From an uncultured Chlorobiaceae bacterium (GTDB lineage Bacteria; Bacteroidota; Chlorobiia; Chlorobiales; Chlorobiaceae): DNA of 64,000 nt. Positions 4,866 through 26,603 of this stretch are shown here, in pieces (the first letter of the stretch is position 1; the number at the start of each line of letters is the position of its first letter). Made by a program: the position numbers and the translations under genes. The stretch covers positions 32,217-96,216 of the forward strand of contig CAIRXW010000024.1 in NCBI GenBank assembly GCA_903882665.1. Direction: 5' to 3'. Below the pieces are notes generated by a model. It made no database searches, had not been told where the DNA came from, and was given only the letters and a program-made list of their open reading frames with translations.

Positions 4866-5168
4866 TAAGTCGCCACTCTCCAGACTGAACGAACCGGCAT
4901 AATCACCAGCAATTTCAGATTTGAAAATGCGAAATACAATTTTATCAATGTCAAAACGGGTTTCGATGTAACGGAGGCCGTTCAGGTTTCGGCCACTCTC
5001 AGCGATGCAAAAACGCGTCACCGGGAGCTTCGCGGCCTGACGGAGTGCTGCAACAAGTTCGGTTTACTCAGTGGCCTGATTATCACACTCAACGGATCGG
5101 AAGAGTTTGAGCATCATGGAATAGCCGTTACGGTCATGCCGCTCTACCGATGGCTGTTGCAAAAATAA
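4866..5168 (+). pseudogene. C-terminal remnant of an AAA+ ATPase with DUF4143 domain
   Basis: Hand translation gives ...FINVKTGFDVTEAVQVSATLSDAKTRHRELRGLTECCNKFGLLSGLIITLNGSEEFEHHGIAVTVMPLYRWLLQK*. This matches the conserved C-terminus of DUF4143 ATPases. No N-terminal ATPase part is present. Confidence 0.6.
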
Positions 5169-5244
5169 GCCGCGTTTATTGGTATACGTATCATTCCAAC
5201 CAGTCAGAAGTAAGGTGTTCACCTTCGGGCCAGCTTAATGTGGT

Positions 5245-5520
5245 TTATGCCTGTTCAGCCGTGACCTTTTCAGCGCCTTGTTCAACCATTTTTTCATACA
5301 GGTACTCTGGAGCGAGGTCTGCGTCATTTTCCCACCTGATGGTATGGACAACGTCAGATACTTCAAATTTCCTGAAGGTGTTGTAATCTTTCAGTTTTTC
5401 AAACATAGCGCCCCAAAGAGCCTCCTTCAGGTCGACCACCCCGCTTGCACCATTGTTAAAGGTAATATCTATCCGATACTCTTCGATGTATTCAGCCTTG
5501 GTAACTTCTAACATAATCAT
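5245..5520 (-). CDS. DUF2442 family small protein
   Basis: 91 aa. ...YRIDITFNNGASGVVDL...IRWENDADLAPEYLY. It lies immediately downstream of the DUF4160 gene. Confidence 0.8.
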   Translation of the reverse strand: MIMLEVTKAEYIEEYRIDITFNNGASGVVDLKEALWGAMFEKLKDYNTFRKFEVSDVVHTIRWENDADLAPEYLYEKMVEQGAEKVTAEQA

Positions 5521-5778
5521 TTACTCCAATGGCGGGATTTTATTTAAAGGTTCATGCCTTTCTGCCAGATTCCAGTCTTCAAGAAGATTGTCTTTGTAAA
5601 TCTCATACCATTCCATCAACGAGTGAAGGGCACGCTTTGGAAAACGGCCATCAACTATTCCTGAAAGAATTTCAACGATAACTTTGTAGTCGCCATATTG
5701 GGCGTGAAAATGAGGCGGGCTGTGATCATTGTATAGCATAGTGATGATTATTCCAAGAAATCTGCTCAGTTCCGGCAC
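5521..5778 (-). CDS. DUF4160 family small protein
   Basis: 85 aa. MPELSRFLGIIITMLYNDHSPPHFHAQYGDYKV is the canonical DUF4160 N-terminus. It abuts the DUF2442 gene, a two-gene TA-like cassette. Confidence 0.8.
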   Translation of the reverse strand: MPELSRFLGIIITMLYNDHSPPHFHAQYGDYKVIVEILSGIVDGRFPKRALHSLMEWYEIYKDNLLEDWNLAERHEPLNKIPPLE

Positions 5779-5893
5779 GTTTCTCCTTTTCTCTTTTCAT
5801 TTAAAACCAGCAATAATACCACAGATTACCCTCTCTCGACTGTTTGAACAACGTTACCGTTGACCTCTTGAACAGGGTTCGCTTTGTAAAAAA

Positions 5894-5940
5894 ACAGCTT
5901 TTCGAAGTATAATAAACAATTTCAGGCCATCAAAACAGAT
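5894..5940. repeat. 47-bp direct repeat, copy A (partner at 28388..28434)
   Basis: acagcttttcgaagtataataaacaatttcaggccatcaaaacagat versus actgcttttaggagtataacaaacaatttcaggccatcaaaacagat. There are 5 mismatches in 47 by hand alignment. Confidence 0.75.
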
Positions 5941-6190
5941 GACAACACGCTCTAACCCGGCATCAATCATTTGGTTCGTCGATCACTCTTCCCCTCCAAC
6001 TAAAAAACTTCCTCACAGGAAGGAAAACTTTTGATATTTCTTCCTTCCCGGAAAGACAGGAGCTTTACAGGCCGGGACGGGATGACAAAAAAAGGCAACA
6101 GAGAGAAAACCGCTGAAAAAGCTGTAACTTCACGCCCAAAACAGGCCCGCTTCCGGCGGCGCTTTTTCCTTTAAAATCAATCGTGCACTT

Positions 6191-7636
6191 TTGGCTCTCG
6201 ACTACACCACCCTGAACCTGCTCCGTCAGAACCATCCTGCGTGGCGACTCTTGTGCGCCCAGTACGCGCCGCTGGTGGCCGGGTTTCTGCACCGGGTCTT
6301 TATTGTGCCCAATGTGCGGATTCTCTCGCAGGCCGATCTGGTTGAGTCGCTGGAGGATGAGCTTTTTTCCCTGCGCCAGCAGCTCGGTGCCGACCAGTTT
6401 CCCGGTACGGCGCAAAGCTACCTGAACGATTGGGCCGACAACGACAAGGGGTGGCTGCGCAAATTCTATCCGGACGGGACGGATGAACCTCACTTTGATC
6501 TGACGGCCTCCACTGAAAAGGCGCTGGCCTGGCTGGAGGGGTTGGCCGAGCGTGCTTTTGTGGGCACGGAGTCGCGACTGCTCACCCTCTTTGAACTGTT
6601 GCGTCAGATGAGCATGGGAAGTCAGGCCGATCCTGAAGTACGGATTGCGGAGCTGCAAAAGCGGCGTGACGATATTGATGCCGAAATTGCCCGAATCCGC
6701 GACGGAGAGATATCGCTGCTTGACGATACCGGACTGAAAGATCGCTTTCAGCAATTTCTGCAATTGGCCCGTGAGTTGCTGACCGATTTCCGTGAGGTGG
6801 AGCACAACTTTCGCACCCTAGACCGCCGCGTGCGTGAGCGCATTGCCCTCTGGGAGGGGGCCAAGGGGGCGCTGCTGGAGCAGATCATGGGTGAGCGTGA
6901 TGCCATTGCGGATTCGGATCAGGGAAAAAGCTTCCGGGCATTCTGGGATTTTCTCATGTCGCAGTCACGCCAGGAGGAGCTGAGCCTGCTGCTCGAAGAG
7001 GTTCTCGCCTTGCCGCCGATAGTCTCGATGCGCCCCGACAGCCGCCTGCGGCGCGTTCACTACGACTGGCTGGAGGCTGGAGAGCATACCCAGCGCACGG
7101 TGGCACGCCTCTCAGAACAGTTGCGCCGCTTTCTTGATGACAAGGCGTGGCTTGAGAATCGGCGCATCATGGATATTCTGCACGGAATTGAAAGCCAGGC
7201 CCTTGAGTTGCGCGAAGGCTCCCCTTCTGGCGTCTTTCTCTCTCTTGACGGCTCTGCGGCGGCCATCGAGCTCCCTTTCGAAAGAGGCTTGTATCGCGCT
7301 CCCTTCAAGCCCTTGATTGCCGGTATCGCCCTTGATGAGGGGGATGCGGAGATTGATACCGCCGCGCTCTACGCCCAGATCGTGGTTGACCAGGCGGAGC
7401 TGCTGCGAAATATCCGTCTGGAACTTCAGATGCGCATCCAGGTCACCCTTGGGGAGGTGATTGCGCGTCACCCGCTGCGGAACGGTCTGGCCGAGCTGGT
7501 GGCCTATCTGCAACTTGCCGGGGAAAAGTTCAAGACGACGGTGGATGAAACAACTGAAGAAGAGGTGCAATGGGAGAGCGAAACGGGTGTCACCCGCCGC
7601 GCAACCTTGCAGCGTATTATTATTATGAGAAACTGA
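6191..7636 (+). CDS. jetA: Wadjet JetA (DUF3375, MksF-like kleisin subunit)
   Basis: 481 aa with a TTG start. Motifs: HPAWRLL, GTESRLLTLFELLRQM, DFREVEHNFRTLDRRVRERIALWEG, SDQGKSFRAFWDFLMSQSRQEEL, LSEQLRRFLDDKAWLENRRI. Confidence 0.9.
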   Translation: MALDYTTLNLLRQNHPAWRLLCAQYAPLVAGFLHRVFIVPNVRILSQADLVESLEDELFSLRQQLGADQFPGTAQSYLNDWADNDKGWLRKFYPDGTDEPHFDLTASTEKALAWLEGLAERAFVGTESRLLTLFELLRQMSMGSQADPEVRIAELQKRRDDIDAEIARIRDGEISLLDDTGLKDRFQQFLQLARELLTDFREVEHNFRTLDRRVRERIALWEGAKGALLEQIMGERDAIADSDQGKSFRAFWDFLMSQSRQEELSLLLEEVLALPPIVSMRPDSRLRRVHYDWLEAGEHTQRTVARLSEQLRRFLDDKAWLENRRIMDILHGIESQALELREGSPSGVFLSLDGSAAAIELPFERGLYRAPFKPLIAGIALDEGDAEIDTAALYAQIVVDQAELLRNIRLELQMRIQVTLGEVIARHPLRNGLAELVAYLQLAGEKFKTTVDETTEEEVQWESETGVTRRATLQRIIIMRN

Positions 7637-8271
7637 TGATGAACCATACCGAGATTGAAACCGGCCGTTTAAACTCTCCGGCCCAGGAGCTCTCCTCTCT
7701 CGTGATTCCCCTGTTGAAAGGGGTGATCTATCAGGAGCAGAGCCCGGCCTTGTGGGGCTCTTTGCTCAACCTGATGGCCGCCGTGCGCGATTACGTGGCG
7801 GTGCTTGGGCTGGAGTTGATCCTTGATGAGTCGGAAGGATATGCCTTTTTGCGTTCACGCAGTGAGGGCGAAACGGAGGGGACGAACAGCACACTCCGCC
7901 TGATGGCACGCCGCCAGCTCTCCTACCCGGTCAGCCTGCTGCTGGCACTGCTGCGCAAAAAGCTGGCCGAATTTGATGCGGGTGCTGGCGACACACGCCT
8001 GATTCTTTCACGGGATGAGGTGGTGGAGCTGATCCGCATTTTTCTCCCCCCCACCAGCAATGAGGTGAAGCTGATCGACCAGGTTGATGCCACGCTGAAT
8101 AAAATCGCCGATCTTGGTTTTATCCGCCGGTTGCGGGGAGAGCGGCAGATGATTGAAGTGCGCCGGATTATCAAAGCCTTTATCGACGCCCAGTGGCTGT
8201 CCGATTTTGATCAACGAATGGCCGAATACCGGCAGCAACTTTCGCAACCGTTGGAGAAAAGTGATGAGTGA
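7636..8271 (+). CDS. jetB: Wadjet JetB (DUF4194, MksE-like)
   Basis: ORF 7570..8271. The start ATG 7636 overlaps the jetA TGA (TGATG). Motifs: LLKGVIY, VLGLELILDESEGYAFLR, RRQLSYPVSLLLALLRKKL, EVRRIIKAFIDAQWL. Confidence 0.9.
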   Translation: MMNHTEIETGRLNSPAQELSSLVIPLLKGVIYQEQSPALWGSLLNLMAAVRDYVAVLGLELILDESEGYAFLRSRSEGETEGTNSTLRLMARRQLSYPVSLLLALLRKKLAEFDAGAGDTRLILSRDEVVELIRIFLPPTSNEVKLIDQVDATLNKIADLGFIRRLRGERQMIEVRRIIKAFIDAQWLSDFDQRMAEYRQQLSQPLEKSDE

Positions 8272-8370
8272 GGCGCTTGAAATGGGATTTATTGCCGATG
8301 ACCGTCTGGCCGGATTTCGCCTGCAACGGCTTGAGATATTCAACTGGGGCACCTTCGACGGGCGGGTCTG
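8185..8370. repeat. Left copy of the 186-bp duplicated jetB-3'/jetC-5' junction (partner at 10470..10655)
   Basis: Hand alignment. The 88-nt jetB-tail part has 19 mismatches. The 98-nt jetC-head part has only 4 mismatches. Confidence 0.85.
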
Positions 8371-8404
8371 CCAGTGTACGTATTTGTGGAAATATCACCA
8401 ATAA
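8264..8404 (+). pseudogene. Orphan 5' stub of jetC (first ~35 codons), truncated at the insertion junction
   Basis: [35 protein letters not shown] then runs into unrelated sequence (CQCTYLWKYHQ*). Compare the intact JetC N-terminus [36 protein letters not shown] at 10549. Confidence 0.85.
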
Positions 8405-8624
8405 AGCGCATTTTTTCTTTATTTAATGCGTAAACTTAAAGCTTATATCGACAATTTGAAGTAAAAGCGTTTTTTCACTGCACGAACATGTCAGGTTTAC
8501 AACTCAAACTCAGTCACGTTTTGTCTAGTGACCGAGAAACGCCTCACTTTTACGAAAGAATTAAATATATAATAAATTAGATTGAAGCTTTACCAAAATT
8601 GTTAGCCGAATAGGAATATTAATT

Positions 8625-9341
8625 ATGCCTTTAATTGCGTGCCCTGAATGCGGTAAAGAAATGTCACAAGTCGCACAGTCATGTCCAAACTGTGGCAAAC
8701 AGAACGCAAATGTTATGCAAAGAAAGCGATATGTAAGATTTTTTTGGCTTGGCACTGGAATTTTTTTATTTCCAATAATATTTTCATGGTTTACTCTACG
8801 TAAAGGTTATTCAATAACAGCAAGGGTTATTTCTATCTCATGGTTAGTACTTTTTTATTTGGTTTTTTTTAACACAAAAAATGTTCACACTCCAAAAGAA
8901 ATGCCAGATAATCAGCACGTTCAATTGGATTCTTCAGGTTACAAATACTTCGTTGAACAACCTAAAGCAACGGAACTTGCTAAAGCTCAGCTTAAAGAGA
9001 GTCCTGCTTACAAAGACTATTCGGCCGATGCAAATACAGCACTTCTGATTGAAGTTAAGGAACGACTGAAAGCTCCAAGTGGTGCTGATTTTCCTTGGGA
9101 TGATTTACCAAAAGAAGTAACAACGAAAGGAGTAAAGCTTTCTGATATGAGCCCTTATTTACATAAAGTCATAAAGGAAGCTCGAAAACTAAAAAAAGAA
9201 GATAATGTTCGAGTGTATCAAAAAAATTCTTATGTAGATGCTGAAAATTCATTTGGTGCTAAAATTCGTCAGCGCTATTTAGGAACTTTTATAATCTACA
9301 CTGAATTTGGATATACAAAATCGTTTATTGAGTTCTATTAG
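8625..9341 (+). CDS. Zinc-ribbon membrane protein, function unknown
   Basis: 238 aa. N-terminal CPECG...CPNCG zinc ribbon, two hydrophobic helices (FFWLGTGIFLFPIIFSWF, VISISWLVLFYLVFF), then a ~150-aa soluble domain. Strongly AT-rich. Confidence 0.6.
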   Translation: MPLIACPECGKEMSQVAQSCPNCGKQNANVMQRKRYVRFFWLGTGIFLFPIIFSWFTLRKGYSITARVISISWLVLFYLVFFNTKNVHTPKEMPDNQHVQLDSSGYKYFVEQPKATELAKAQLKESPAYKDYSADANTALLIEVKERLKAPSGADFPWDDLPKEVTTKGVKLSDMSPYLHKVIKEARKLKKEDNVRVYQKNSYVDAENSFGAKIRQRYLGTFIIYTEFGYTKSFIEFY

Positions 9342-9444
9342 GGACTTAGCAGGGTGACGTAAATAAAAATGCGGATTCTCGGGATTACGTCGCCGGGAAG
9401 CTGGACAAAAGAACTCATTTTGTCTTAAATTTGAATAAAATAAC

Positions 9445-9888
9445 ATGTCCAAAATTATTTTTTTGATTCCTGTACTGCTGATAGTAATAATGATTATACT
9501 ACTATTACCTTTTCATAATTATATTTCACAATTAAAGAATGACGAACTACAACAATGGATTGCATGTATTTATGCTTTTACAGCCATCTTAAGCTTTTGT
9601 TCTTTTATTGGTGTCATCTATACTGTTCACATTCAATTCAATGAACTACAATTATCCAGAAAAACCCAAGAGAAACAGACAGATTATGCTCGGTTGAATG
9701 CTTTAACTATATTAAACGAATATTATCGAACTGAATATAAGCGTCGAGAGATCATAATCGAATCATTACAAGGTATGGAGGGACAAAAAAATGCAATAAA
9801 CAATAACTTAGATACAGAAGATTTATACAAAGAAACTATAACGGAAATTAAAAAGTATCACTCTACACTTTGCAAATCTAAAACATAA
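9445..9888 (+). CDS. Membrane protein with C-terminal charged/coiled region, function unknown
   Basis: 147 aa. Two N-terminal TM helices (IIFLIPVLLIVIMIILLL; IYAFTAILSFCSFIGVIYTV) followed by a K/E/Q-rich tail. Confidence 0.5.
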   Translation: MSKIIFLIPVLLIVIMIILLLPFHNYISQLKNDELQQWIACIYAFTAILSFCSFIGVIYTVHIQFNELQLSRKTQEKQTDYARLNALTILNEYYRTEYKRREIIIESLQGMEGQKNAINNNLDTEDLYKETITEIKKYHSTLCKSKT

Positions 9889-9994
9889 TTTTTTATGTTG
9901 ACTATTATTTGAGGTCGCTTCAGAAAACGGATTTTAATACCTTATAAAATAATTTATGAATTGACATGATCAAATTTCATTAAATTTTTGCAAT

Positions 9995-10159
9995 ATGAGC
10001 TGGAAGAATGGACGATATATATCTGGAACAAGAGGCGTTGTCTTTCGTTTGGAACAGATGAAAAGACAAAAAGGAAAACGTAAAGCGAATGAATCCGCTT
10101 TATTAACTTTAGTAAAGTTAATTTTTTTAGTTTGGCTTCTTATTGTACTTATTTTTTGA
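9995..10159 (+). CDS. Possible 54-aa tail-anchored membrane peptide
   Basis: Found by hand, because it falls below the ORF-track length cutoff. MSWKNGRYISGTRGVVFRLEQMKRQKGKRKANESALLTLVKLIFLVWLLIVLIF*. It is on the same strand as the two preceding ORFs. Confidence 0.3.
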   Translation: MSWKNGRYISGTRGVVFRLEQMKRQKGKRKANESALLTLVKLIFLVWLLIVLIF

Positions 10160-10469
10160 TTGCAATAAGACAAATACTATTGACCTGTTTGTACGAACCA
10201 ATAGTTATTAGTTATCTTTGTGGGTTTACCTGAAGATAGAAAAAATATGAAGTAGGAACTAAAGGATATTGATGAATGAAGATAGGCTAAAACCTAACTT
10301 GATCGATTTACTATAAAAAAGCTTCGGCATTTTCAGTTAAAGCATAATACTTAAATGAGTAATAGGGAATTATCATTTGCAAAGTAACACAAGCCAAAAA
10401 GTATTGACGATCTACGGCAATAGATACAAAAAAGAGCCACAAAAAAGACCATCATATCAGTTCTGTCGG

Positions 10470-10655
10470 GACGCCCAGTGGCTGGCCGATTTTGATAAAC
10501 GACTTGACGAATACCTGCAGCGACCGGTAAAAGGAATGGAGAAAGATGATGAGTGAGTCGCTTGAAATGGGATTTGTTGCCGATGACCGTCTGGCCGGTT
10601 TTCGCCTGCAACGGCTTGAGATATTCAACTGGGGCACCTTCGACGGACGGGTCTG
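10470..10655. repeat. Right copy of the 186-bp jetB-3'/jetC-5' junction. It includes a 28-codon jetB-tail relic (10470..10556).
   Basis: It encodes ...[28 protein letters not shown], versus the resident JetB tail DAQWLSDFDQRMAEYRQQLSQPLEKSDE*. Confidence 0.85.
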
Positions 10656-13600
10656 GACACTCAAACTGGGAGGGAAAAACGGCCTGCTCACTGGAGATAT
10701 CGGTTCCGGAAAATCGACGCTGGTCGATGCTGTGACCACCCTTCTGGTGCCAAGCCAGCGCATTGCCTACAACAAGGCGGCAGGTGCCGACAACCGTGAA
10801 CGCACCTTGCGCTCCTACGTGCTCGGCTACTTCAAGTCGGAGCGGCATGAGAGCCTCGGAGGAGGCGCCAAGCCGGTTGCCCTGCGCGAACTCAATGGCT
10901 ATTCGGTCATTCTCGGCGTCTTTCAAAACGAAGGCTACGACAAGACCGTTACCCTCGCACAGATTTTCTGGATGAAGGATGCCACACAGCCCGCCCGCCT
11001 CTATGCCGCTTATGAGGGTGACTTGTCGATTGCTGTCGATTTTTCAGGCTTTGGTGCCGAAATCGGGGCACTGCGCAAGCGTCTGCGCGGAGCGGGAGTT
11101 GAGCTTTTCGAAACCTTTCCTCCCTACGGTGCCTGGTTCCGGCGGCGCTTCGGCATCGAAAATGAGCAGGCGCTCGACCTCTTTCATCAAACCGTCTCGC
11201 TCAAGTCGGTAGGCAACCTGACCGATTTTGTGCGTCTCCACATGCTTGAACCCTTCACGGTTGAGCCACGCATTGCCGCCCTTATCCAGCATTTCGAAGA
11301 TCTCAACCGGGCGCACGAAGCGGTTCTCAAGGCGAAACGGCAAATCGAGATGCTTGGCCCTCTGGTGGCTGATTGCGACACGCACCACACCTTGGCCGAG
11401 CGAGCCGAAGAGCTTCGCGGCTCCCGCGACACCCTGCGCCCCTGGTTCGCCTCACTCAAACTCGAACTGCTCGACAAACGCCACGCCTCTCTGAGTGAGG
11501 AGCTGAGCCGTTACCAGATCGCCATCGAACGCCTTGAGGCTGGGCGTCGCACCCAGCGGGATCGTGAACGGGAACTACACCGAACCATCGCCGAAAACGG
11601 GGGCGACCGGATTGAGAGTATCGCAGCAGAGATTCGCCAGCAAGAGGAGGAGCTCCAGCGGCGCAACCAGAAATCGGCCCGATATGGAAAACTTGCACGC
11701 CAACTGGGAGAGCATCCTGCCGCGACCGCCGAGGAGTTTCATCTCCAGCGTGCTGGCCACTCAACCATGCACGAAACAACCGCCAACGCTGAAGCGAGGG
11801 TTCAGAACGATCTCAATGAGGCGGGCGTCCTCTTTACCCAGGGGCGTCACGAGCATGAGCAACTGAGCGCCGAGATCAAGAGCCTCAAGGCCCGCATGAG
11901 CAATATCGACGAAAAACAGATTGCCATGCGCCGCTCACTCTGCCATGCGCTCGGTATCGCCGAAACGGAGATGCCCTTTGCCGGTGAACTGCTTCAGGTG
12001 CGTGAAGAGGAAAAAGTGTGGGAGGGAGCCATTGAGCGGGTGCTCCGCAACTTCGGCCTCTCGCTGCTGGTGCCCGACCATCACTACCCCAAGGTGGCCG
12101 AATGGGTGGAGCGCACCAATCTGAAAGGGCGGCTGGTCTATTTCCGTCTGCGCCCGCAAACTCGCAGCGAAGCGTTGCCCGATAACCCCGATTCACTGGC
12201 CCGCAAGCTCGCCATCAAGGCCGACTCCCCCTGTTTTGACTGGCTCGAACGGGAGGTGGCCCATCGTTTTGATCTGGTCTGCTGCAAAAGCCAAGAGGAG
12301 TTCCGGAGAGAGAAAAAAGCGATCACCCAGGCGGGCCAGATCAAGTCACCCGGTGAACGGCACGAAAAGGATGACCGCCACCGCCTTGACGACCGCAGCC
12401 GCTATGTGCTCGGGTGGAGCAATGCCGCCAAAATCGCCGCCCTTGAAAAGAAGGCTAAAGGGCAGCAACAGGAGCTGACCGAACTCGCTGGCCGCATCAG
12501 CTCACTGCAACAGGAGCAAAAATCGCTCAAGGAGCGGCTGACCATCCTCTCCAAGCTTGATGAATATCCTGATTTCCGCGACCTCGACTGGCAGCCGATA
12601 GCCTTTGCCATCGCCCGGCTCGAAACAGAAAAGCGTGACCTTGAAGCTGCCTCGGATCTCCTGAAAACCCTTACCGACCAACTGGCCGCGCTCGAAATCG
12701 AACTGCAGGAGACGGAGCGGCAACTTGACGACAAAAAGGATAAACGCTCAAAAATAGAGCAGAAAATCAGCGTCAACAATGAGCAGCAGCAACAGGCACA
12801 TGCGATACTCAATGAAGCAGTACCCGACGCTGCCAGCCGCTTCCCCACCCTCCAGCTCATGCGTCAGGAGGCTTTCGGCGACCAGTCGCTGACGGTAGAA
12901 TCGTGCGACAACCGCGAACGGGAGATGCGCGACTGGCTTCAGGCAAAAATCGACAGTGAAGACCGGAAGCTCTCCCGATTGGGCGAAAAGATCATCCGGG
13001 CGATGACCGAATACAAGGAGGAGTGGAAACTGGAGACCCGTGAGGTGGATGTCAACATCGCCGCTGGCTACGAGTATCGCTCAATGTTCGCCCAACTCCA
13101 GGCCGACGACCTGCCGCGCTTTGAGGATCGGTTCAAGGAGCTGCTCAACGAAAACACCATCCGGGAGGTGGCCAATTTTCAGTCGCAACTGGCCCGCGAA
13201 CGGGAGAGCATCAGGGAGCGCATTACGAAGCTCAACGAATCGCTCACGCAAATCGACTACAATCCGGGCCGATACATCACCCTTGAAGTACAGATCAGCC
13301 CCGACGCCGACATCCGTGACTTTCAGTCGGAGCTGCGAGCCTGCACCGAGGGAACGCTCACCGGCTCGGATGACGCGCAATACTCCGAAGCCAAATTCCT
13401 CCAGGTGCGCCGCATCATCGACCGCTTCCGTGGCCGTGAAGCATACTCCGACCTCGACCGGCGCTGGACCGCCAAAGTGACCGACGTGCGCAACTGGTTT
13501 GTTTTTGCCGCCAGCGAACGGTGGCGCGAAGACAACAGCGAACACGAACACTACGCCGACTCAGGCGGCAAATCCGGCGGGCAAAAGGAGAAGCTTGCCT

Positions 13601-13913
13601 ACACGGTGCTTGCCGCCAGCCTTGCCTACCAGTTCGGCCTTGAATGGGGGTCGTGCGCTCCCGCTCCTTCCGCTTCGTGGTCATCGACGAAGCCTTCGGA
13701 CGCGGCTCCGATGAATCGGCCCAGTACGGCCTGCAACTCTTTGCCCAGCTCAACCTGCAACTGCTCATCGTCACCCCCTTGCAGAAAATCCACATCATCG
13801 AGCCCTTCGTCTCCAGTGTCGGCTTTGTCCACAACAAGGAGGGACGCTGCTCGGAGCTGCGCAACCTCACCATCGAAGAGTATCGCACCGAAAAAGAGAG
13901 GTCGGTGGAATGA
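10546..13913 (+). pseudogene. jetC: Wadjet JetC (SMC/MksB-like ATPase) interrupted by a 1-nt frameshift in a G5 run (13646-13650)
   Basis: N-terminal [16 protein letters not shown] and Walker [21 protein letters not shown], followed by long coiled coils. After ...[10 protein letters not shown] the frame degenerates into S/P/A-rich nonsense (to 14037). The frame starting at 13644 encodes the expected tail [23 protein letters not shown]...[12 protein letters not shown] (Walker B / D-loop) and ends at 13913 with an ATGA overlap onto jetD. A sixth G would restore a single ~1120-aa ORF. Confidence 0.85.
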
Positions 13914-15085
13914 GCTGGACAACCCCCGCCGAACTCAAGGCCCAGGTGCAGAAGCTCTGGGATCGGGGCCTCATCCTCTCCTCCCTGATTGGCGGCGAAT
14001 CGGTTTTTCCCCGTCGCCTGACTCTGAAAGGGCCTGACTCCCGGCAATTGAGCGACTCTTTTGGGGAAGTGCGTGACTGGATAAAGCGACTCGACGACGC
14101 AGCAAAGCAGTATCGCATTGTGTGGCGCAGTGTCAACCACCGCATTGTGGGGAACAATGAGATTCCGGATGAAATCTGGATTGATTCACTCAACGACGCT
14201 CTCGGGTTGATTGGCAAGCGGCGTGATGCTGAGCGGTTTGCCGCCCTGGTTGCTCTGACCCGCAGCCGTCAGCCTGAACTGCTGCCGTGGCTGGCCAAAC
14301 GCCCCCTGCACGCCCTCGAACTGGCCGAAGAGTGGTCCCGCATCCTCGACATCGTCGCCTGGCTGCAAAACCATCCCCGGCCCGGTATCTACCTGCGCCA
14401 GATTGACCTGCCTGGAGTGCACAGCAAGTTCATAGAAGGGCATCGTGGAGTGCTTGGCGAACTCTTTGATATCGTCCTTCCACCGGAAAAGATTGACGCA
14501 ACGGCGGTTGGCGTTGGAGGATTCTGCCGCCGTTACGGCTTTCAGGACAAACCCCTGCGAGTACGCTTCCGCATCCTTGACCCGACACTGGCGCTGTTCA
14601 TGACGGAGAGTGATCACGATATCACGGTGACGCAGGCAATCTTTGCCCAACTGGAGCTGCCTGTTACCAGAGTCTTCATCACCGAAAACGAAATCAACTT
14701 TCTCGCCTTCCCCGATGTTCCCGAGGCAATGGTGATTTTTGGAGCCGGGTATGGGTTTGAGAATCTGGCGTCAGTCGAGTGGATGCGTAACCGCGTTATT
14801 CATTACTGGGGCGACATCGACACCCACGGCTTCGCCATTCTCAACCAGTTGCGCGGATTCTTTCCCCATGCGGCTTCCCTTTTGATGGATAGTGAGACAC
14901 TGATGGAGCATCAAGCGCTTTGGGGCGTTGAACCATCTCCCGAAACCGGTACACTCACTCGACTGACCGCTGAAGAGAACCCGCTTTACGATCAGTTGCG
15001 CCGGAATGAGCTGGGACATCAGATACGGCTGGAGCAGGAGAAGATCGGGTTTGAGTGGCTGGTTGAGGCGCTGGGGAGAGTTTGA
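13910..15085 (+). CDS. jetD: Wadjet JetD (DUF3322 + DUF2220/Toprim-like nuclease subunit)
   Basis: 391 aa. Motifs: [51 protein letters not shown]. Confidence 0.9.
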
Positions 15086-15189
15086 GCGAGGATTATTGTT
15101 TGCAAAGAACAACTCATACGACAAAAAAATAATACAGTTTTATTCCGCGATTTCTACTTATCATCTAAATGAAGTACCACGCAGTATAA

Positions 15190-15639
15190 TTGTGTTTTTA
15201 TTCCTTAGACATCAAATGTATGACAATGCGTTATTTCAATGTCAACACCAATAGGCGTCACAACCAAAAGGCTCAACAAGAAATGTTGTCCGAGAACAAG
15301 GCCGCCACACATTACCAAAAATTTTTAATGTATAATTTAGAGGAAGATGACGTTGTTTTCTTATACGAATCTAAGGTCGGAATTGTGGCATTAGGTGAAG
15401 TTGGTAAAGGAGAAGTGATGATAAAAAAATGTCGAAACGACGATCAGTATGAGGACGGTAATGAATATTACAGAAACTTGAACAATTTCAAGATATTAAG
15501 CCAGCCGTTGACGTTTGCTAAAATAAAAGAAATCACAAGAAAATATTATGGCTGCGTTCACGCAATGAATTGTGTTTCAGATGATTGTGGTACAGCCATC
15601 AAAAACTTCATTTACGACCCCACAAACAAGCTGTTATAA
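15190..15639 (+). CDS. Hypothetical protein
   Basis: 149-aa ORF with a TTG at 15190; more likely starts are ATG 15220 or 15226 (MTMRYFNVNTN...). AT-rich, convergent with the VRR-NUC gene. I recognise no motif. Confidence 0.45.
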   Translation: MCFYSLDIKCMTMRYFNVNTNRRHNQKAQQEMLSENKAATHYQKFLMYNLEEDDVVFLYESKVGIVALGEVGKGEVMIKKCRNDDQYEDGNEYYRNLNNFKILSQPLTFAKIKEITRKYYGCVHAMNCVSDDCGTAIKNFIYDPTNKLL

Positions 15640-15659
15640 TTGATTATTTCATTAGTTGG

Positions 15660-16355
15660 TTAATGTTTTTGTGGAAGTAGTTGAACTACACAACATACAA
15701 GCCCGAGCGGCTTTGCGATTTCTTTTGCAAATCTCAACTGCGATTCATGAAGACGATCGGTTGTCTTGACTTCAATAAATGACACCCCATTTTTATCTAT
15801 AACGGTTAAATCAGGCCAACCGGATCGATAATCATAGGGATTTGTCATAAATAATGCAGCAATTTTAGCAATCAAATTGGAATCAACTAAATAGGCAAGG
15901 GAGCTTAAAAAATTTTGAAGAATTCCTTGGTGAGAATATTCTTTTTGGTAAAAATATTGAGTTAAGGGATCAGTACAGATCTCAATGATGTGTTCTTGTA
16001 ATTGCTCGGGGCTAATGTTTTGGATACAAGTCAGTATTTCTGGTTGGTAAGCCTTGAGTATCGTACACTGGGCTTCAAAAAAACGACGGATTGCATCTTC
16101 TCTGTCGTTAAAAATATTTCGTTTTGTCAAAACATCCAAAGCCGCTGCCTTCATTAGAATACTTATTCCCATACCCTCACACCAACATGATTCTCTGTTT
16201 TCGGCAGCTAATCGAGTAACAACGACTTGTTCAGGTTTTAGGTCTGAAACCTGCCCTTCCTTCCATTTCCCTGCGCCTATTTTCAATGCATGCATGGTGT
16301 GAAGTGGCCAATTAATTTGCTCGCATTGAGCTTTTAATGTCAGGGTGGTCATCAT
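15660..16355 (-). CDS. FAN1-like VRR-NUC (PD-(D/E)xK) nuclease
   Basis: ORF 15660..16442, with the probable start at MMTTLTL (16355). C-terminal YRSGWPDLTVIDKNGVSFIEVKTTDRLHESQLRFAKEI fits the VRR-NUC pattern GxPDL...xEVK..D.L...Q. The upstream CWCEGMGISILMK resembles the H/W-x-EG helix that precedes VRR-NUC in FAN1. Confidence 0.75.
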   Translation of the reverse strand: MMTTLTLKAQCEQINWPLHTMHALKIGAGKWKEGQVSDLKPEQVVVTRLAAENRESCWCEGMGISILMKAAALDVLTKRNIFNDREDAIRRFFEAQCTILKAYQPEILTCIQNISPEQLQEHIIEICTDPLTQYFYQKEYSHQGILQNFLSSLAYLVDSNLIAKIAALFMTNPYDYRSGWPDLTVIDKNGVSFIEVKTTDRLHESQLRFAKEIAKPLGLVCCVVQLLPQKH

Positions 16356-16623
16356 AATGGAGTTGTGCTTGTAATGCAATAAAAACCGAAACACAAGAAA
16401 TATTGAAAAAGATTCTGGTCCGCTTGAAAAGAGCAAATACATCGAAATATGAACACAAATTACTTCAAATGAAATTAATTCAGAATAATGATCGGTACAT
16501 CATAGATGTTTGTTAAGAACAACAAATCAATACTATGTATTATATCTTGAAGTGAACAAACCAAACCGATTTTTTGCTGCTGATAAACATCGACCCGTGA
16601 TATTCATTCAGATAAATCATCAA

Positions 16624-17634
16624 TTAGTCTTCTGGTATGTCGTAATTATCATGAGGAAAAGAAACCCAGGAGAATTCGATAAAATTATTATCTCCTCTCC
16701 AATAATGCAGGTGATATTCTCCAATGACATCCCTTCTCATACCTATTGCCCCATCAAGTTTTCTCTTTAGGGCCGGGTTTCCTCCGCCAATTCCTGTTCT
16801 AAATCGGTGTTCTGCAGCTTTGTTTAGATTGAGTAACGAGTCAAGCATTGTCATTATTGTCTGTCGCAGAATAGATTGCTGTAATTTGAGTTCTTTGAGC
16901 CTGCTGATGAATTTGCTACCAATCTTATAAAGGGGGATCTCATCAGAAGGAGTCGTGGATTTATTATGAAGATCAAAAACGAATTGGATGGCAATTTTTA
17001 GGGTTTCTTCACTAAGCAAGGAATGAAAGAGTTGTCCGATATCCAGATGTTTGAGGATATCTTGGTAATCCATTGCCAAAAGAAAACGATTGTGAGATAT
17101 CTGAGGATTCAAGTCACGGGAGTTGAGGCTGGCTGTTGTGTCAATTACTGTACTATTGATAATGTGTTGTGCAAGAATAGATTGACGTTCGTTTGGCTGG
17201 TCAGCCTCTAAAATTAAGCACTGCAATGTCTTAATAAAAAGCGACTGTAAATTAGTACCTATGGCGTTTTCTGGGATAGCGGGAGTAACTGAATCTATTT
17301 TGACTTCCTTGTCGGTAATCTGCAAATTCTCATCTTCAAGATAAGAATGGAGGGACGTAAGTTTATAGAAATACGGAATTAGATCGTTGGCGCTATGTTC
17401 ATAAACATTGCATTGTTTAAGTTTTAGTGAAAGTTTTTTTGGATCAAGATATTCGCTGTCTATAAATAGTGCATTCAGGGAACCGCGACTCATTATCAGA
17501 CTCAAAAGGGGCTCTGACCTGAAGAAATCCAATGAAATCAATGCATCTATATATTGTAAAGCCTTTTCTTTCTTGTCCCCGATACTCGAAATAGCCAATA
17601 CACTGGGGTCAAGAATGACGCGTAAAGGGAGCAT
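16624..17634 (-). CDS. Hypothetical protein with a RelE/ParE-like C-terminal segment
   Basis: 336 aa. I see no N-terminal motif. The C-terminal GAIGMRRDVIGEYHLHYWRGDNNFIEFSWVSFPHDNYDI follows the RelE/ParE core pattern (G..W.R.VG.YRl.Y...d..i.i..v..H..Y). It starts 25 nt after the upstream ATPase stop. Confidence 0.6.
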   Translation of the reverse strand: MLPLRVILDPSVLAISSIGDKKEKALQYIDALISLDFFRSEPLLSLIMSRGSLNALFIDSEYLDPKKLSLKLKQCNVYEHSANDLIPYFYKLTSLHSYLEDENLQITDKEVKIDSVTPAIPENAIGTNLQSLFIKTLQCLILEADQPNERQSILAQHIINSTVIDTTASLNSRDLNPQISHNRFLLAMDYQDILKHLDIGQLFHSLLSEETLKIAIQFVFDLHNKSTTPSDEIPLYKIGSKFISRLKELKLQQSILRQTIMTMLDSLLNLNKAAEHRFRTGIGGGNPALKRKLDGAIGMRRDVIGEYHLHYWRGDNNFIEFSWVSFPHDNYDIPED

Positions 17635-17659
17635 AATTCGAAAGATTAGAAAGATTTAA

Positions 17660-19204
17660 TTAATTATTTTTCGGATTGCTTTTCCGCTTCTTGATGGCGG
17701 CTTTAGTGATTTTTTCGACGGCGGATTCATTTTCATCAAAAAAGCCTTCAGGCCAATCCAGAATGCTGCCACATTCGTCAATCTTGATTTCGCGAAATGT
17801 AGAGCTATCATTTTTGTTTTCGACGAAATACACTTTTGCAGCATCATGCCAGGGAGAACCCTCGAAGCCCTCAGCAATCCGAAGACGAATGCGGTTAATA
17901 ATGTGTTCACTATGCGTTTCAACAAGGCACTGCTTGCCGAGCTGCGTCAGAGAAAGGAAAAAGTCAGCCAATCGAGACTGAACTTTCGGATGAAGATGCA
18001 ATTCCGGCTGCTCAAATATCAATGTTGTGTCCGGCTCCGCAAGTAAGCCAGAAACAAGAATAGGTAAAACCTGACTAACACCTACGCCTACTTGAGTTAT
18101 ATCATTAATTTGATTGCCATTACCTATCTTAACCCCAAGTTCAAGGCCGTACTTGCCCTTGTCAGTCACTTCAATTTTTTCAGCTATACCAAGATACCCA
18201 AGCCAGTCATCAATAGCATTTTCGAGTAAACATTCAATAGGCTCTGGAATATTTCCTGATTTATCGAAAGATAAAGAAGGAATGTATCGAATGATTTTGC
18301 GCTTATGCGTTTCAAAAACCTCCGGAGTGTTTTCGCCTTTCAGACCGATAGTGTTTTCATTTAAGTTAGAAAATCGGGCATATAAAGACTTGGAGGAGGC
18401 TCGCAAAGGTCCGAGATAGTGTAATGACTTTGAAAAGTATTCCTTGATATATTGCGTAGCCTCTTTAGCTTGTGGCGGTAGTGACCCCCTCCACATGTTA
18501 AAATAGTTATTTTTGCCCTTATCTGTCCATTCATCACCAATTAACAACTGTGCAGGTAAGAAATTTTGAAATATACAACCGATTGCAGAGCATTTATACT
18601 CTTCCTCAACTGTGTTACAAGGAAGCTTAGAAAAATCGTCTTTGTGAAAAACATGGGATTCACGATCTTCGATATTATAGCTTAAAGCATTACGAATATC
18701 CTTGTCCGAAGTGTTTTGTATCCATTTCTCTTTCCAGCCAATTGTAAGAATGTCAGGGCGCTTTACATTCAAAGAGTATTGGTTCCCCAGACCAAAATGA
18801 GAACGACATAAATCTATGTCACTGTTATCCCCTGTTGGCAAATACAATTCTGAATCACTTGGTGCAACGGCTATCTCGCAATATATTTTCTTCTTTAAAA
18901 TCTCATCGAACGGAAGCAAGGTGTCGCTTAAAGTTAAACACTCCCAGCCGATTACCAAGGTCTTTGATGTACTGTTATCACTTATGTTGTCATTGAAATT
19001 TCCCAGCTTAATGAGATCACCGTTCAATACTAATGGACGAGAAGGATCCTTATGTGAAAGTGTCTGAACAATAAGCAGTATAGACTTTAGAATGGTACTC
19101 TTCCCGCTACTATTTGCTCCTGCGAAAAGAGTCAAAGGGAAAAAATCAAGCTCTGTGTAATCACGTATAGACCTAAAATTAGCTAACTTCCATTTTGTAA
19201 TCAT
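17660..19204 (-). CDS. ABC/OLD-type ATPase (AAA_15/AAA_21-like) with DUF3696-type C-terminus, short paralogue
   Basis: ORF 17660..19246, with the start taken at MITKWKLANF (19204). Walker A GANSSGKST, Walker B-like LIFEQPELHLHP, H-loop ETHSEHIINR, C-terminal DWPEGFFDE. Confidence 0.85.
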   Translation of the reverse strand: MITKWKLANFRSIRDYTELDFFPLTLFAGANSSGKSTILKSILLIVQTLSHKDPSRPLVLNGDLIKLGNFNDNISDNSTSKTLVIGWECLTLSDTLLPFDEILKKKIYCEIAVAPSDSELYLPTGDNSDIDLCRSHFGLGNQYSLNVKRPDILTIGWKEKWIQNTSDKDIRNALSYNIEDRESHVFHKDDFSKLPCNTVEEEYKCSAIGCIFQNFLPAQLLIGDEWTDKGKNNYFNMWRGSLPPQAKEATQYIKEYFSKSLHYLGPLRASSKSLYARFSNLNENTIGLKGENTPEVFETHKRKIIRYIPSLSFDKSGNIPEPIECLLENAIDDWLGYLGIAEKIEVTDKGKYGLELGVKIGNGNQINDITQVGVGVSQVLPILVSGLLAEPDTTLIFEQPELHLHPKVQSRLADFFLSLTQLGKQCLVETHSEHIINRIRLRIAEGFEGSPWHDAAKVYFVENKNDSSTFREIKIDECGSILDWPEGFFDENESAVEKITKAAIKKRKSNPKNN

Positions 19205-19298
19205 ATCTATTCTGGTTTTACAACACCCGAGATGCTGATTGATCAATGAGTAAAGATATCACGTTTGAGAAACGCCGTTACTGTAGCAGCTTACGGTG

Positions 19299-21454: not shown

Positions 21455-22306
21455 TTACCTGCAAATTCCTAAATGCTCGTGAATGATTTTAATTGAGGGA
21501 ACAACCGTATTTTGCAAATATTCTGTTGGTTCATTTCCACCCCAATTGTAAGGGAAATGAGCACTTGGGTGTGAAAAAGCAGCTATAAATGACTCATGGG
21601 AACCAAGTTTTGCCTTATACACGAAATCTGACACTTGACTTACCGAGTCAAACGATTTTCTGATTGATTTCTTCCAAAAACCTTTTCCCTGAACAATTAT
21701 CACCGACGGTTCAAGAATATTCATAACCTTACGAAAATGCCCACCACAGTTACTCATCATCGTCGGTGTAGCCTTTCCGTTACATGTCCCGTCAGGAACG
21801 GCTGAACAGAGCAAATAGTTGACAAGAGCAAATGCATCGAAAATATGAACGCGCTTGCCTTCAATCGACAGAAATTCAGAATGGTGATCGGTACCGAGTG
21901 GAATGCCGAAAATCAACCGAAGAACGCTTGTTGTGCCTTTCATGTGAGGATTCCGGCCCTTATAACCTTGTCCAGCAGCAAACCGGCAGTCAAGAGCAGA
22001 AAACTTGAACATTTGAGATCGCGCCTGACAATCAACACGGGCTGGAGGATGCCCATATTCTTGCCCAACGACAACGACACGTAATGGCCTCCCATCGAAT
22101 GAAACGCCGTAATATTTCCCTACGTGGTGAAGTTGCCCCTCGTAAAATGTATCAGCGTGCGATGATTTGCACGAATTATAGTGTGAACAGATAAAATCAT
22201 CACCCAAGACATTATCGGTCAAATACTGTTCAACCGCCTGTATTCGGGCCTCAGACTTTTGCTTCTCGTATGTTGCAACAATAGAATCCGCTAACGGAAG
22301 GCTCAT
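21455..22306 (-). CDS. Uracil-DNA-glycosylase-superfamily-like protein (divergent)
   Basis: 283 aa. Three collinear motifs match family-1 UDG: RVVVVGQEYGHP (res. 76-87, cf. GQDPYH), FALVNYLL (res. 159-166, cf. LLLN) and AAFSHPSAHF (res. 242-251, cf. HPSPLS). Assigned by motif reading only. Confidence 0.6.
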   Translation of the reverse strand: MSLPLADSIVATYEKQKSEARIQAVEQYLTDNVLGDDFICSHYNSCKSSHADTFYEGQLHHVGKYYGVSFDGRPLRVVVVGQEYGHPPARVDCQARSQMFKFSALDCRFAAGQGYKGRNPHMKGTTSVLRLIFGIPLGTDHHSEFLSIEGKRVHIFDAFALVNYLLCSAVPDGTCNGKATPTMMSNCGGHFRKVMNILEPSVIIVQGKGFWKKSIRKSFDSVSQVSDFVYKAKLGSHESFIAAFSHPSAHFPYNWGGNEPTEYLQNTVVPSIKIIHEHLGICR

Positions 22307-22726
22307 AACAACTTTGTAAAAAATTCACAACTGTCTGCCGAATTTAGTGAAATAAACGAATAAAACACCTCATCTTGTGCGGCAAAAGATCTTTTTACGG
22401 AGCAGGAGCATTTCATATCATATCATCAAAACACACATCAATAACCTCACTCACTCCGCTTCAGGCAAGTCTCTTTGCTTTGAGTTTTACCCCCTTCAAA
22501 AATCGCATCGACAACCTGTACAGGAAATCCCGCAATTGGCTGCTGCGGTCCATAAACACGCTGAAGTTTTTTACATGCCACTCTATGGATCAAAAGAGTA
22601 AAAAAGCTACCTGCAATCGAAAGAATGGTTTACCAACAAGTAAAGCAGGATCCATGGCACCCGGATGGGCAATTTTCGGACGATTATCGAACATTTATCG
22701 GACGATTAACGGACGATTATCAAACA

Positions 22727-23155: not shown

Positions 23156-23197
23156 AGCGAGCTTTACCTGACCGAAGTTTTGTGAGAATGAGGAAAC

Positions 23198-26285: not shown

Positions 26286-26424
26286 CAAGCGGGAACCTCC
26301 TATCGCACAGCAATAGTGTGCGGACAAATCAGCGCCACACTCCCATTCGATAAAGTATCCGCCATTGCGAACCTTCGTAAATTCTTCAAGGTTCCGAAGC
26401 TTTTCAAACGCTTCATAGTCCAGT
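26271..26424 (-). pseudogene. DUF2442 C-terminal fragment
   Basis: ...YEAFEKLRNLEEFTKVRNGGYFIEWECGADLSAHY... The fragment stops being DUF2442-like exactly where the jetC-derived sequence begins (26425). Confidence 0.45.
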
Positions 26425-26594
26425 CCGACGACCTGCCGCGCTTTGAGGATCGGTTCAAGGAGCTGCTCAACGAAAACACCATCCGGGAGGTGGCCAATAT
26501 TCAGTCGCAACTGGCCCGCGAACGGGAGACTATCAGAGAGCGCATCACGCGGCTCAACGAATCGCTCACGCAAATCGACTGCAATCCGGGCCGA
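26425..26594 (+). pseudogene. 170-bp internal jetC fragment (homologous to 13103..13272)
   Basis: Hand alignment shows 8 mismatches in 170 nt. It encodes [56 protein letters not shown]. Confidence 0.85.
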
Positions 26595-26603
26595 ATCAAG
26601 CGA

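Follow-up and report, generated by a model that had tools for sequence, protein, structure and literature searches.

Phages and genomic islands that reside in tRNA or tmRNA genes are well-known integrative elements carrying a replacement for the gene end that they displace, and defence-island hotspots are characterized by a turnover of cargo between conserved flanks. Homology-facilitated illegitimate recombination (HFIR) was originally described in Acinetobacter and Streptococcus pneumoniae, and natural competence is known for Chlorobaculum tepidum. During HFIR, as outlined in PMC3240628, linear DNA integrates by homology at one end and by an illegitimate join at the other. Johnston et al. (2013) describe duplications triggered by transformation, in which donor DNA pairs in an alternative way: if a fragment taken up by the cell has partial repeats in the chromosome, recombination can give rise to duplications (PMC3784515). 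Type I Wadjet, in turn, cleaves small circular DNA by loop extrusion (10.1101/2022.10.04.510915, PMC10889018).

Here we report on a freshwater (lake) green sulfur bacterium of the Chlorobiaceae, in which a type I Wadjet operon (jetA-jetB-jetC-jetD) inside a variable defence island has been split between jetB and jetC. The probable cause is not a mobile element but ordinary recombination involving a stray fragment of Wadjet. All coordinates refer to the window, i.e. the whole stretch of 64,000 nt that was analysed, and the jet genes lie on its forward (+) strand. Using Pfam we found the domains of type I Wadjet in JetA, JetB and JetD: jetA (6191..7636; 481 aa) encodes DUF3375 (PF11855, E = 1.1e-155), jetB (7636..8271; 211 aa) DUF4194/MksE (PF13835, E = 1.2e-45; PF21980, E = 3e-20) and jetD (13910..15085; 391 aa) DUF3322 (PF11795, E = 1.6e-63) together with JetD_C (PF09983, E = 3.5e-61), the C-terminal domain of Toprim type. 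The 211-aa jetB gene call was found again in public contigs. Between jetB and the full jetC (10546..13913) lie 2,099 nt of inserted DNA (8371-10469) with a G/C content of 26-37%, compared to 55-62% for the jet genes and ~48% for the rest of the window. While jetC starts within ~50 nt of the jetB end in 72 of 80 related loci, and the two genes overlap by 4-7 nt in close Chlorobiaceae, the window genes are 2,285 nt apart and the operon is not contiguous. Directly behind jetB we find a dead 36-codon jetC stub (8261..8426), made up of ~36 native codons up to 8370, where its native jetC homology stops, and of insert read-through to a stop codon at 8424-8426; it lacks the Walker A motif. The remaining jetC-jetD part follows 2.3 kb downstream, behind co-oriented foreign genes. 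An assembly artefact as the source of this arrangement was ruled out, as the junctions are crossed by several independent assemblies: a 139-kb ENA contig matches the window at 100% identity, both inner junctions lie within Logan contig L002 (window 8332-10565), contig L003 spans the left one, and the order jetA-jetB-cargo-jetC recurs in a 6.3-kb contig of another sample (ERZ1426828). As a separate observation, the same island harbours a stray jetC fragment of 176 nt (26419..26594, forward strand; codons ~850-909) amid toxin-antitoxin genes, which is 94.9% identical to window 13097-13272 and 92% identical to contig L013 (see below).

The insert is flanked by a direct repeat. Repeat search and BLAST both yielded two ungapped copies of 186 nt (8185-8370 and 10470-10655) with a spacing of 2285 and an identity of 87.6% (self-BLAST E-value 1.7e-56). 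The left copy consists of the native jetB tail and the first 102 nt past the jetB end; the right copy consists of a foreign jetB-tail relic (10470-10556, 28 codons plus stop) and the start of the full jetC. The copies differ at 23 positions, 19 of them in the jetB-tail part and four in the jetC-head part (+5, +23, +46 and +94 relative to the jetB end), an unevenness that is significant (Fisher p = 2.9e-4). Their longest identical run comprises 47 nt (8315-8361 = 10600-10646), a run of the kind that jetC conservation predicts anyway. Beyond the junction 8370|8371 there is no Wadjet homology. The relic tail and the jetC head form a substitute for the displaced gene end, restoring the jetC 5' end and the GGAG ribosome-binding site upstream of it; the native arrangement of ribosome-binding site and overlap is kept by the relic only. 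The preliminary description of this DNA, made from the sequence alone, had given the same repeat coordinates, mismatch counts, insert size and encoded tails, all of which check out, as does its observation that jetC now lies 2.3 kb from jetB; the native stop/start overlap of the two genes is lost.

Which of the two tails is foreign can be seen from the closest relative, a MAG contig (L013) that contains the same operon uninterrupted, with the resident jetB tail and with neither insert nor duplication. It is colinear with the window from ~6090 to 20261, with 91-100% identity per 100 nt on either side of the insert, and its JetA and JetB share 98.5% and 99% amino acid identity with those of the window. 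In a pairwise scan, jetA-jetB and jetC both turned out to be L013-like (~95-96% nucleotide identity to the left as well as to the right of the insert); a separate ancestry of jetAB and jetCD, as put forward in the preliminary description, must therefore be given up. The sole strongly divergent stretch is a patch within jetD (14052-14650, 73-86% identical), 3.4 kb away from the insert. A sister strain contig with the same chromosomal neighbours likewise has an intact uninterrupted jetABCD. The left repeat copy differs from the L013 junction at four of 186 nt. At each of the four head variants L013 has the base of the left copy, and state A at +46 is common to these two and occurs in none of the other compared loci. 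The resident tail (DFDQRMAEYRQQLSQPLEKSDE) that forms the end of the window jetB is likewise the end of the L013 jetB. The relic tail, compared with other loci as had also been suggested, is 75% identical to L013, 96.4% to L015 and 94% to L012, and its 28 residues exactly match the usual Chlorobiaceae JetB tail (P0027, P0029, P0030, P0034, P0042, P0045 and P0056). As L013 is uninterrupted, has the resident tail and is ~95-96% identical on both sides, the right-hand tail is the foreign piece. The opposite assignment (relic tail ancestral, resident tail foreign), suggested by JetB homologues of up to 93% identity, was overturned by the 99%-identical uninterrupted L013. Judging from these sequences, the ancestor of the window locus probably looked like L013, with a jetB of resident tail directly overlapping jetC. 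The foreign-type tract can be followed from -68 to +46. Mismatches to L013 in the jetC stretch adjoining the right copy cluster from +103 to +139 (six in 37 nt, then none in the next 80 nt), and from +140 the full jetC is L013-like again; one junction was hence resolved within homology, as is characteristic of HFIR.

The inserted DNA itself is made up of two parts, a filler of unassigned origin at the left junction (8371..8562, 192 nt, no strand assigned) and an AT-rich cargo module (8563..10469, forward strand) with three ORFs on the forward strand: 8625-9341 (238 aa, Zn-ribbon and transmembrane segments), 9445-9888 (147 aa, transmembrane) and 9995-10159 (54 aa). Searches for a function of the cargo gave no PADLOC or NCBIfam family, PHROGs matches of unknown function only and, in Pfam, only a Zn-ribbon. 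In an alignment of homologues the cargo protein is modular, with a Zn-ribbon/transmembrane head and swappable C-terminal domains. Sigma-70-like sites number 11 in the insert vs 7.9 ± 3.0 in shuffles, a difference that is not informative about a promoter there. No recombinase, transposase or integrase was found in the insert ORFs or neighbouring ORFs (Pfam, PADLOC, PHROGs, NCBIfam), the repeat search revealed no terminal inverted repeats at the insert, and neither an Rfam family (7500-11000) nor a tRNA in the vicinity of the locus was detected. Megablast of 6000-15200 gave no match in E. coli genomes and, among plasmids, only a distant Thiodictyon Wadjet.

The same cargo (8563-10469) is carried by contigs L100-L102 and L108-L116 with 99.6% identity (7 mismatches in 1,907 nt). 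In these L102-type loci the cargo passes, at exactly the nucleotide seen in the window, into a jetB-tail relic followed by a jetC fragment that stops at +1095. Together they make up a dead Wadjet piece of 1.18 kb (1,178 nt of homology) comprising the last 84 nt of jetB and the first 1,095 nt of jetC, with a JetC head fragment of 196 aa; exceptions are L114, which stops before the end of the fragment, and L112, which has an internal deletion. None of these contigs contains jetA, the jetB body or the stub. The cargo-relic unit exists outside the window locus, and together with the uninterrupted L013 junction and the foreign relic tail this bears out one of the two scenarios first considered, namely that the insert brought its own jetB-3'/jetC-5' segment. 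In L102 the dead Wadjet fragment adjoins phage-like genes, including terminase and portal; a search of a viral collection found neither the L102 portal nor the 23-mer of the cargo border. The other end of the cargo is flanked by other AT-rich genes in L102, and is connected to jetC +102 via the filler in the window. This filler is absent from L102-type and L093 loci, and only 62 nt of it resemble L013 116-177. An apparent pair of cargo variants (146 aa vs 238 aa) proved to be a difference in gene calling only, as the L108 DNA is the same as that of L102 and its 238-aa frame is intact.

Taking these observations together, we favour with moderate confidence a one-sided homologous recombination in the jetC 5' end combined with a non-homologous join 102 nt into jetC, the donor being a stray Wadjet fragment; both the direction of transfer and the type of recombination are what we infer from the comparisons above. 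The locus would have gained a 2,285-nt piece 102 nt into jetC, consisting of the filler, the 1.9-kb AT-rich three-gene module and a second jetB-tail/jetC-head junction. The donor was probably a unit of the type carried by L102 and by nine or more further contigs, its dead Wadjet fragment serving as homology arm: the right end would have recombined with the host jetC, with a crossover between +46 and ~+140, and the left end would have been joined without homology to jetC position +102. The probable route is HFIR of incoming DNA; a break at +102 that was repaired by copying an ectopic template would lead to the same outcome. Neither transposase nor integrase would play a part. Between the window relic and head and the L102-type relic there are 18 differences in 186 positions, although the adjoining cargo is 99.6% identical; this calls for either another round of exchange or a donor that has not been sampled. 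Exchange with other Wadjet alleles may later have replaced the Wadjet-derived part of the insert as far as the heterology border; alternatively, this part may stem from an unsampled variant of the donor. The design is repeated at a second locus, L016, where the borders differ and the cargo is a toxin-antitoxin pair of genes, evidence that the process recurs.

Since the right crossover can be placed no finer than +46 to ~+140, integration by a single crossover has to be weighed as well. A circle of 2,285 nt, composed of filler, cargo and one 186-nt junction fragment, might have integrated within the 186 nt in a Campbell-type event, and such a circle could have left another split allele by recombination between the repeats of that allele. 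Its topology directly yields a heterologous direct repeat, and the repeat fully contains the clearly foreign tract (-68 to +46). A single crossover somewhere right of +46 would moreover leave a left copy of host type and a right copy that is of foreign type up to +46 or further, which is what we see. We nevertheless regard the circle as unlikely: the mismatch cluster at +103 to +139 suggests that the foreign tract extends beyond the repeat end, the circular junction is found in no contig (L002, with 8332-10565, falls short of the full circle), and the known carrier of the cargo, the L102 type, has 1,178 nt of Wadjet homology instead of 186 nt and lacks 8371-8562.

The one-sided recombination also presupposes a polarity, which could be reversed if the split were older, with L013 a revertant via repeat recombination and the L102-type unit captured from a window-type allele. 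The 186-nt repeats would permit such a deletion, Wadjet fragments are scattered across these islands, and the direction between L102 type and window type is suggested only indirectly, by relative abundance and by L013. We hold this to be quite improbable: as L013 equals the left copy at every head variant including +94, the deletion crossover would be confined to the last 8 nt of the repeat, the stub is free of decay, unlike those of old split alleles, and the distribution of the L102-type unit is much wider than that of the window type. It is a long shot that the widespread, sequence-invariant unit is a device of a phage-like element rather than debris. The conserved piece of host Wadjet would then provide an attachment site based on homology, or else a decoy or dominant-negative JetC head, and intact operons would be disabled by the insertion; the window and the older split alleles in six Chlorobiaceae species would be footprints of such an element. 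A cassette that targets jetB codon 184 by means of a recombinase encoded elsewhere, and that inserted independently beside two different jetB tails, would account for the identical cargo|relic border beside ~10% diverged relics and for the drop of identity right at this border; we consider it very improbable, as neither the insert nor its neighbourhood encodes a recombinase, jetB position -84 is in no case the partner of the other cargo end, the L016 border differs and terminal repeats were not found. Finally, a transposon-type target-site duplication or a two-strain assembly chimera, which the direct repeats around the insert and the metagenomic data might bring to mind, is scarcely credible, given a repeat of 186 nt that is 12% diverged in a lineage-specific manner (non-identical copies being the argument of the preliminary description against a simple target-site duplication), the lack of transposase and terminal inverted repeats at the insert and the independent assemblies across the junctions. 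Direct repeats around an insert thus need not be target-site duplications.

In addition to the split, jetC has suffered a 1-nt deletion near 13649, which the preliminary description had not mentioned. The called product of 1,163 aa ends at 14037 without Walker B and C-terminal head: the N-terminal AAA_29 is kept, while the last 86 residues are out of frame, and the Walker A and Walker B heads of this SMC-like ATPase no longer share one polypeptide. If repaired, jetC would comprise 1,122 codons with AAA_29 and SbcC_Walker_B (Pfam), and the jetD start overlaps its true stop codon (ATGA). At least three long contigs contain this frameshifted JetC product. As the deletion removes Walker B, and in view of the split, the Wadjet system is most likely inactive, a loss of function predicted from its genes. 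Annotation pipelines will count the locus as a complete Wadjet although jetC is displaced and frameshifted.

The window is not the only case. We found an older break just past the jetC start in six other Chlorobiaceae species, and Chlorobiaceae Wadjet loci appear to break repeatedly at the jetB/jetC junction; this matters where the plasmid permissiveness of lake populations is inferred from gene presence. Short modules common to the other interrupted loci were considered as recombination sites and discarded, as each locus has them in a single copy and they represent leftovers of a common cargo, including a portal-gene fragment. More generally, a leftover fragment of a defence gene may act as a homology handle by which adjacent foreign genes enter an intact version of the same defence operon and split it without transposase or integrase. 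We regard the locus as an instructive but not exceptional example of a decaying defence locus.

Compared with the systems introduced above, the window matches type I Wadjet in gene order and domains of JetA, JetB, JetC and JetD, but differs in the split behind jetB and in the frameshift of jetC, which make its activity doubtful. It resembles defence-island hotspots in that the island lies between the same core genes in sister strains, differs in content and accumulates toxin-antitoxin and defence genes; here, however, the landing site is within a defence operon, whose own sequence supplies the flanking homology. The likeness to integrative elements, drawn in the preliminary description, holds in form: the incoming DNA carries a replacement gene end that restores the 5' end and ribosome-binding site, and relic and stub form imperfect direct repeats. 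It does not extend to the machinery, as the window has no recombinase such as an integrase and no defined att core, and the target is a protein-coding operon junction that took up 2.1 kb with three small genes. The duplications described by Johnston et al. span 100-900 kb between IS-derived repeats (PMC3784515), whereas in the window 186 nt are duplicated and one copy is foreign. A close parallel is HFIR in transformable bacteria, with homology at one end, a join without homology at the other and no need for an element-encoded enzyme. In contrast to laboratory HFIR, the window presents a natural case. A dead piece of the very same defence operon would serve as homology arm, and the illegitimate joint would lie just within the region covered by this arm, giving rise to the apparent duplication of the junction.

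A self-BLAST of the window returned an ungapped direct repeat of 186 nt (8185-8370, the left copy, and 10470-10655, the right copy; spacing 2,285 nt; E = 1.7e-56) with 23 mismatches, 19 of which fall in the 88 nt of jetB end and 4 in the 98 nt of jetC beginning, at +5, +23, +46 and +94 (positions counted from the jetB end; Fisher p = 2.9e-4 for the unevenness). The surrounding type I Wadjet operon was confirmed with Pfam: jetA at 6191-7636, jetB at 7636-8271 (211 aa; start as in public gene calls), jetC from 10546 and jetD at 13910-15085. Between the repeat copies, 2,099 nt have a GC content of 26-37%, compared with 55-62% in the jet genes and about 48% in the remaining window. The repeat, its mismatch split and the AT-rich insert reported in the preliminary description are real: all were recovered, and independent contigs cross the junctions. 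An assembly artefact is ruled out by a 139-kb ENA contig matching the window sequence, by Logan contig L002 (8332-10565), which spans both inner junctions, by contig L003, which spans the left one, and by a 6.3-kb contig of another sample with the same jetA-jetB-cargo-jetC order. Several independent assemblies break at 8332, inside the left repeat (contigs L006 and L007 end and L002 begins there); a k = 31 graph accounts for the L002 start, but not for the ends of L006 and L007 or the L002 end at 10565. Strain heterogeneity possibly lies behind the shared breaks at 8332.

JetB homologues assign the locus to Chlorobiaceae of stratified lakes. The Chlorobiaceae MAG contig CAIQGA010000127.1 (L013) encodes proteins with 98.5% (JetA), 99% (JetB), 97.5-98% (JetC) and 84.7% (JetD) identity to those of the window, and nucleotide identity per 100 nt is 91-100% from about 6090 across jetA, jetB and jetC and likewise downstream of jetD, the homology extending to 20261. 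In L013 jetB directly overlaps jetC, and nucleotide comparison with the window revealed no trace of the insert or the duplication. L013 has the resident tail (the jetB end of the left copy) and matches the left copy in each of the four head variants, including an A at +46 that is absent from the other compared loci. A contig of a sister strain (ERZ1426829) shares the chromosomal surroundings of the locus, and its jetABCD is intact, JetC being 1,122 aa long. These two comparisons point to an ancestor with an uninterrupted operon and the resident tail. It is unlikely that L013 is instead a revertant that lost the insert by deletion between the repeats, as this would place the crossover in the last 8 nt of the repeat.

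The operon lies in a defence island (4.5-28.7 kb) with an ABC-transporter gene and DUF6398/amidohydrolase genes as its borders; the sister strain has equal borders and a shorter island. Directly downstream of Wadjet are two paralogous NsnB/AriA-like ABC ATPase genes on the minus strand (17660-19246 and 19299-21383; PADLOC E = 6e-74 and 9e-80). Over 7 kb (22306-29387) all ORFs are shorter than 150 aa; this region is dense in small toxin-antitoxin-like genes (PIN, RelE/ParE, HicB-like, DUF2442/DUF4160 types) and contains a 324-nt repeat (22782-23105 and 25303-25624, 94.8%). At 11 kb downstream of the operon, an ORF surrounded by toxin-antitoxin genes harbours a stray 176-nt jetC fragment (26419-26594; 94.9% to window 13097-13272 and 92% to L013).

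The 28-codon relic jetB tail of the right copy (10470-10556) is 75% identical to L013, 94% to L012 and 96.4% to L015, and encodes the exact tail of many Chlorobiaceae JetB proteins, that of Pelodictyon phaeoclathratiforme included. All 3 differences from L015 are synonymous, so selection must have acted on the relic until a short time ago. Few close relatives have the resident tail type (P0001-P0003, P0028/L011 and L013). Between L013 and L015, identity is 74% for the tail but 92% for the head; the repeat's uneven divergence simply reflects the way Wadjet lineages differ. Past the repeat, the full jetC has 6 mismatches to L013 at +103 to +139, where the window copy is unlike every compared locus, and none in the next 80 nt; beyond the repeat it is L013-like again. 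This resumption past +139 indicates that the foreign tract runs from the border (-83) to a point between +46 and about +140. The further proposal that jetAB and jetCD are of different origin did not hold: the sole strongly divergent stretch (14052-14650, 73-86% to L013) lies in jetD, 3.4 kb away from the insert. A similarly low identity is seen at 15852-16136, in a surrounding region of 92-100%, and both stretches are recombination patches from unsampled lineages.

Scanning JGI metagenomes with the final 23 nt of the cargo, the AT-rich module at 8563-10469, yielded L100-L102, and exact matching of the 54-aa product of the cargo, present in 40 blocks of the collection, yielded L108-L116. In all these loci the cargo differs from that of the window at an identical set of 7 of 1,907 positions and joins the jetB-tail relic at the nucleotide equivalent to 10470, and none contains jetA, the jetB body or the stub (the truncated jetC head behind jetB). 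In L102 the relic is followed by jetC sequence ending at +1095; the other cargo loci open with the same relic and jetC sequence, with an internal deletion in L112. The L102 unit sits amid other AT-rich genes; a DUF6371/Zn-ribbon primase-like gene borders it at one end, and SPP1-type portal and terminase genes border it at the opposite end. The cargo-plus-relic unit exists without an intact operon and is far commoner than the window arrangement; such free-standing units directly support the earlier suggestion, which is right, that the insert carried its own jetB/jetC junction. The filler at 8371-8562 (192 nt) was not found in L102-type loci, and the 238-aa cargo gene by itself also occurs in another context (L093). 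Its product (window 8625-9341; homologues P0121-P0133) is modular: a conserved Zn-ribbon and two-transmembrane head with a FPIIFSWFTLRKG motif is paired among homologues with differing C-terminal domains (lipoprotein-like, OB-fold tRNA_anti-like). In Chlorobiaceae, a small phage-like cluster (scaffold, putative capsid, terminase, portal; L103-L107) lies beside ftsY, with a variable spot behind the portal gene that holds a TIR-domain gene. In L102 (1-11431), the matching spot is occupied by an acyltransferase together with the Wadjet fragment and the AT-rich cargo.

When the window is compared with the L102 type, identity is 99.6% up to the cargo-relic border and drops precisely there to about 90%, the first mismatch lying 9 nt beyond. 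We favour the explanation that the Wadjet-derived side was overwritten later, through exchange with the numerous Wadjet alleles that co-occur with it; exchange of this kind can reach the heterology border but not pass it; the window locus is visibly mosaic, and a hybrid tail is known (P0011). Equally possible is an unsampled donor variant. A site-specific cassette might also produce a shared border, but is unlikely because the other cargo end was never found at jetB -84 and no recombinase was seen.

Among 80 related loci from species-representative genomes (17 close Chlorobiaceae, 63 more distant), 72 have no more than about 50 nt between the end of jetB and the jetC start. Six of the 17 close loci (GTDB species representatives L016, L017, L018, L020, L022 and L023) are split just past the jetC start, while only 2 of the 63 distant ones are interrupted, e.g. 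the betaproteobacterial L064, with a small DUF2283-type toxin-antitoxin-like pair between jetB and jetC (10558-11144) and no junction duplication at the insertion; its jetC is seemingly fragmented. L008, L009 and the interrupted Chlorobiaceae loci all have a jetC head in decay (GGCGGTTGAAACGG...), cut back at +17, +33, +45 or +72, and common cargo remnants, followed by variable defence or toxin-antitoxin genes, and L008, L017, L020 and L023 carry a portal-gene C-terminal fragment homologous to the portal adjoining the L102 unit. These loci represent an older split Wadjet allele that is common to several Chlorobiaceae species. The event in the window is separate from it, with a stub free of decay and a cargo of another kind. 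The design of the window locus recurs in L016, where a stub, a toxin-antitoxin pair, a relic tail and a full jetC follow one another and the duplicated junction spans about 115 nt. The orientation of the portal relative to the Wadjet piece is opposite in L102 and the old split alleles. The variable genes of L017 are DUF4276 with AAA_21, ClpB-like, FHA-kinase and HD-CE/HATPase genes, and no jetC was found within 10 kb. L018 has a second, rearranged partial Wadjet upstream of the main locus (4930-6772), in which inverted jetD and jetC C-terminus adjoin a 63%-identical jetB and a 28-codon jetC head.

In the window, the stub comprises about 36 jetC codons and is dead, lacking Walker A, and jetC-jetD lie 2.3 kb further on, downstream of three co-oriented foreign genes. 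The relic keeps the native GGAG ribosome-binding site and stop/start overlap; a promoter scan of the insert did not discriminate for or against a jetCD promoter. Independent of the insert, a 1-nt deletion in jetC near 13649 (window 13640-13655; GAATGGGG-GTCGTG versus GAATGGGGCGCCGTG in L013) throws an 11-residue stretch and the last 86 residues out of frame, with loss of Walker B and the C-terminal head from the reading frame, and the frameshifted product of 1,163 aa occurs on at least three contigs. The L013 jetC has its own independent 1-nt insertion (window-equivalent position 11840). From these lesions, the Wadjet system of this clade is probably decaying.

The insert contains neither a transposase nor an integrase, and no terminal inverted repeats, tRNA or known RNA were found in it. 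Ordinary recombination, directed by a stray piece of the same defence operon, is the most likely mechanism, and its simplest path is one-sided homologous recombination: the cargo-linked Wadjet fragment would have aligned with jetC of the host, with resolution at some point from +46 to about +140, and the opposite end would have joined without homology at jetC +102, via the 192 nt of filler. Alternatively, a break at +102 might have been repaired by copying from an ectopic Wadjet fragment, with the same product. A single crossover of a 2.3-kb circle yields the same map, but fits less well, given the mismatches clustered at +103 to +139 and the far greater length of homology in the known carrier. 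Homology at one end combined with a non-homologous join at the other is what homology-facilitated illegitimate recombination is described to yield (PMC3240628), and duplications are also known to arise when partly repeated donor DNA recombines (PMC3784515). The kind of event is thus already known, and the locus is a fresh instance of it.
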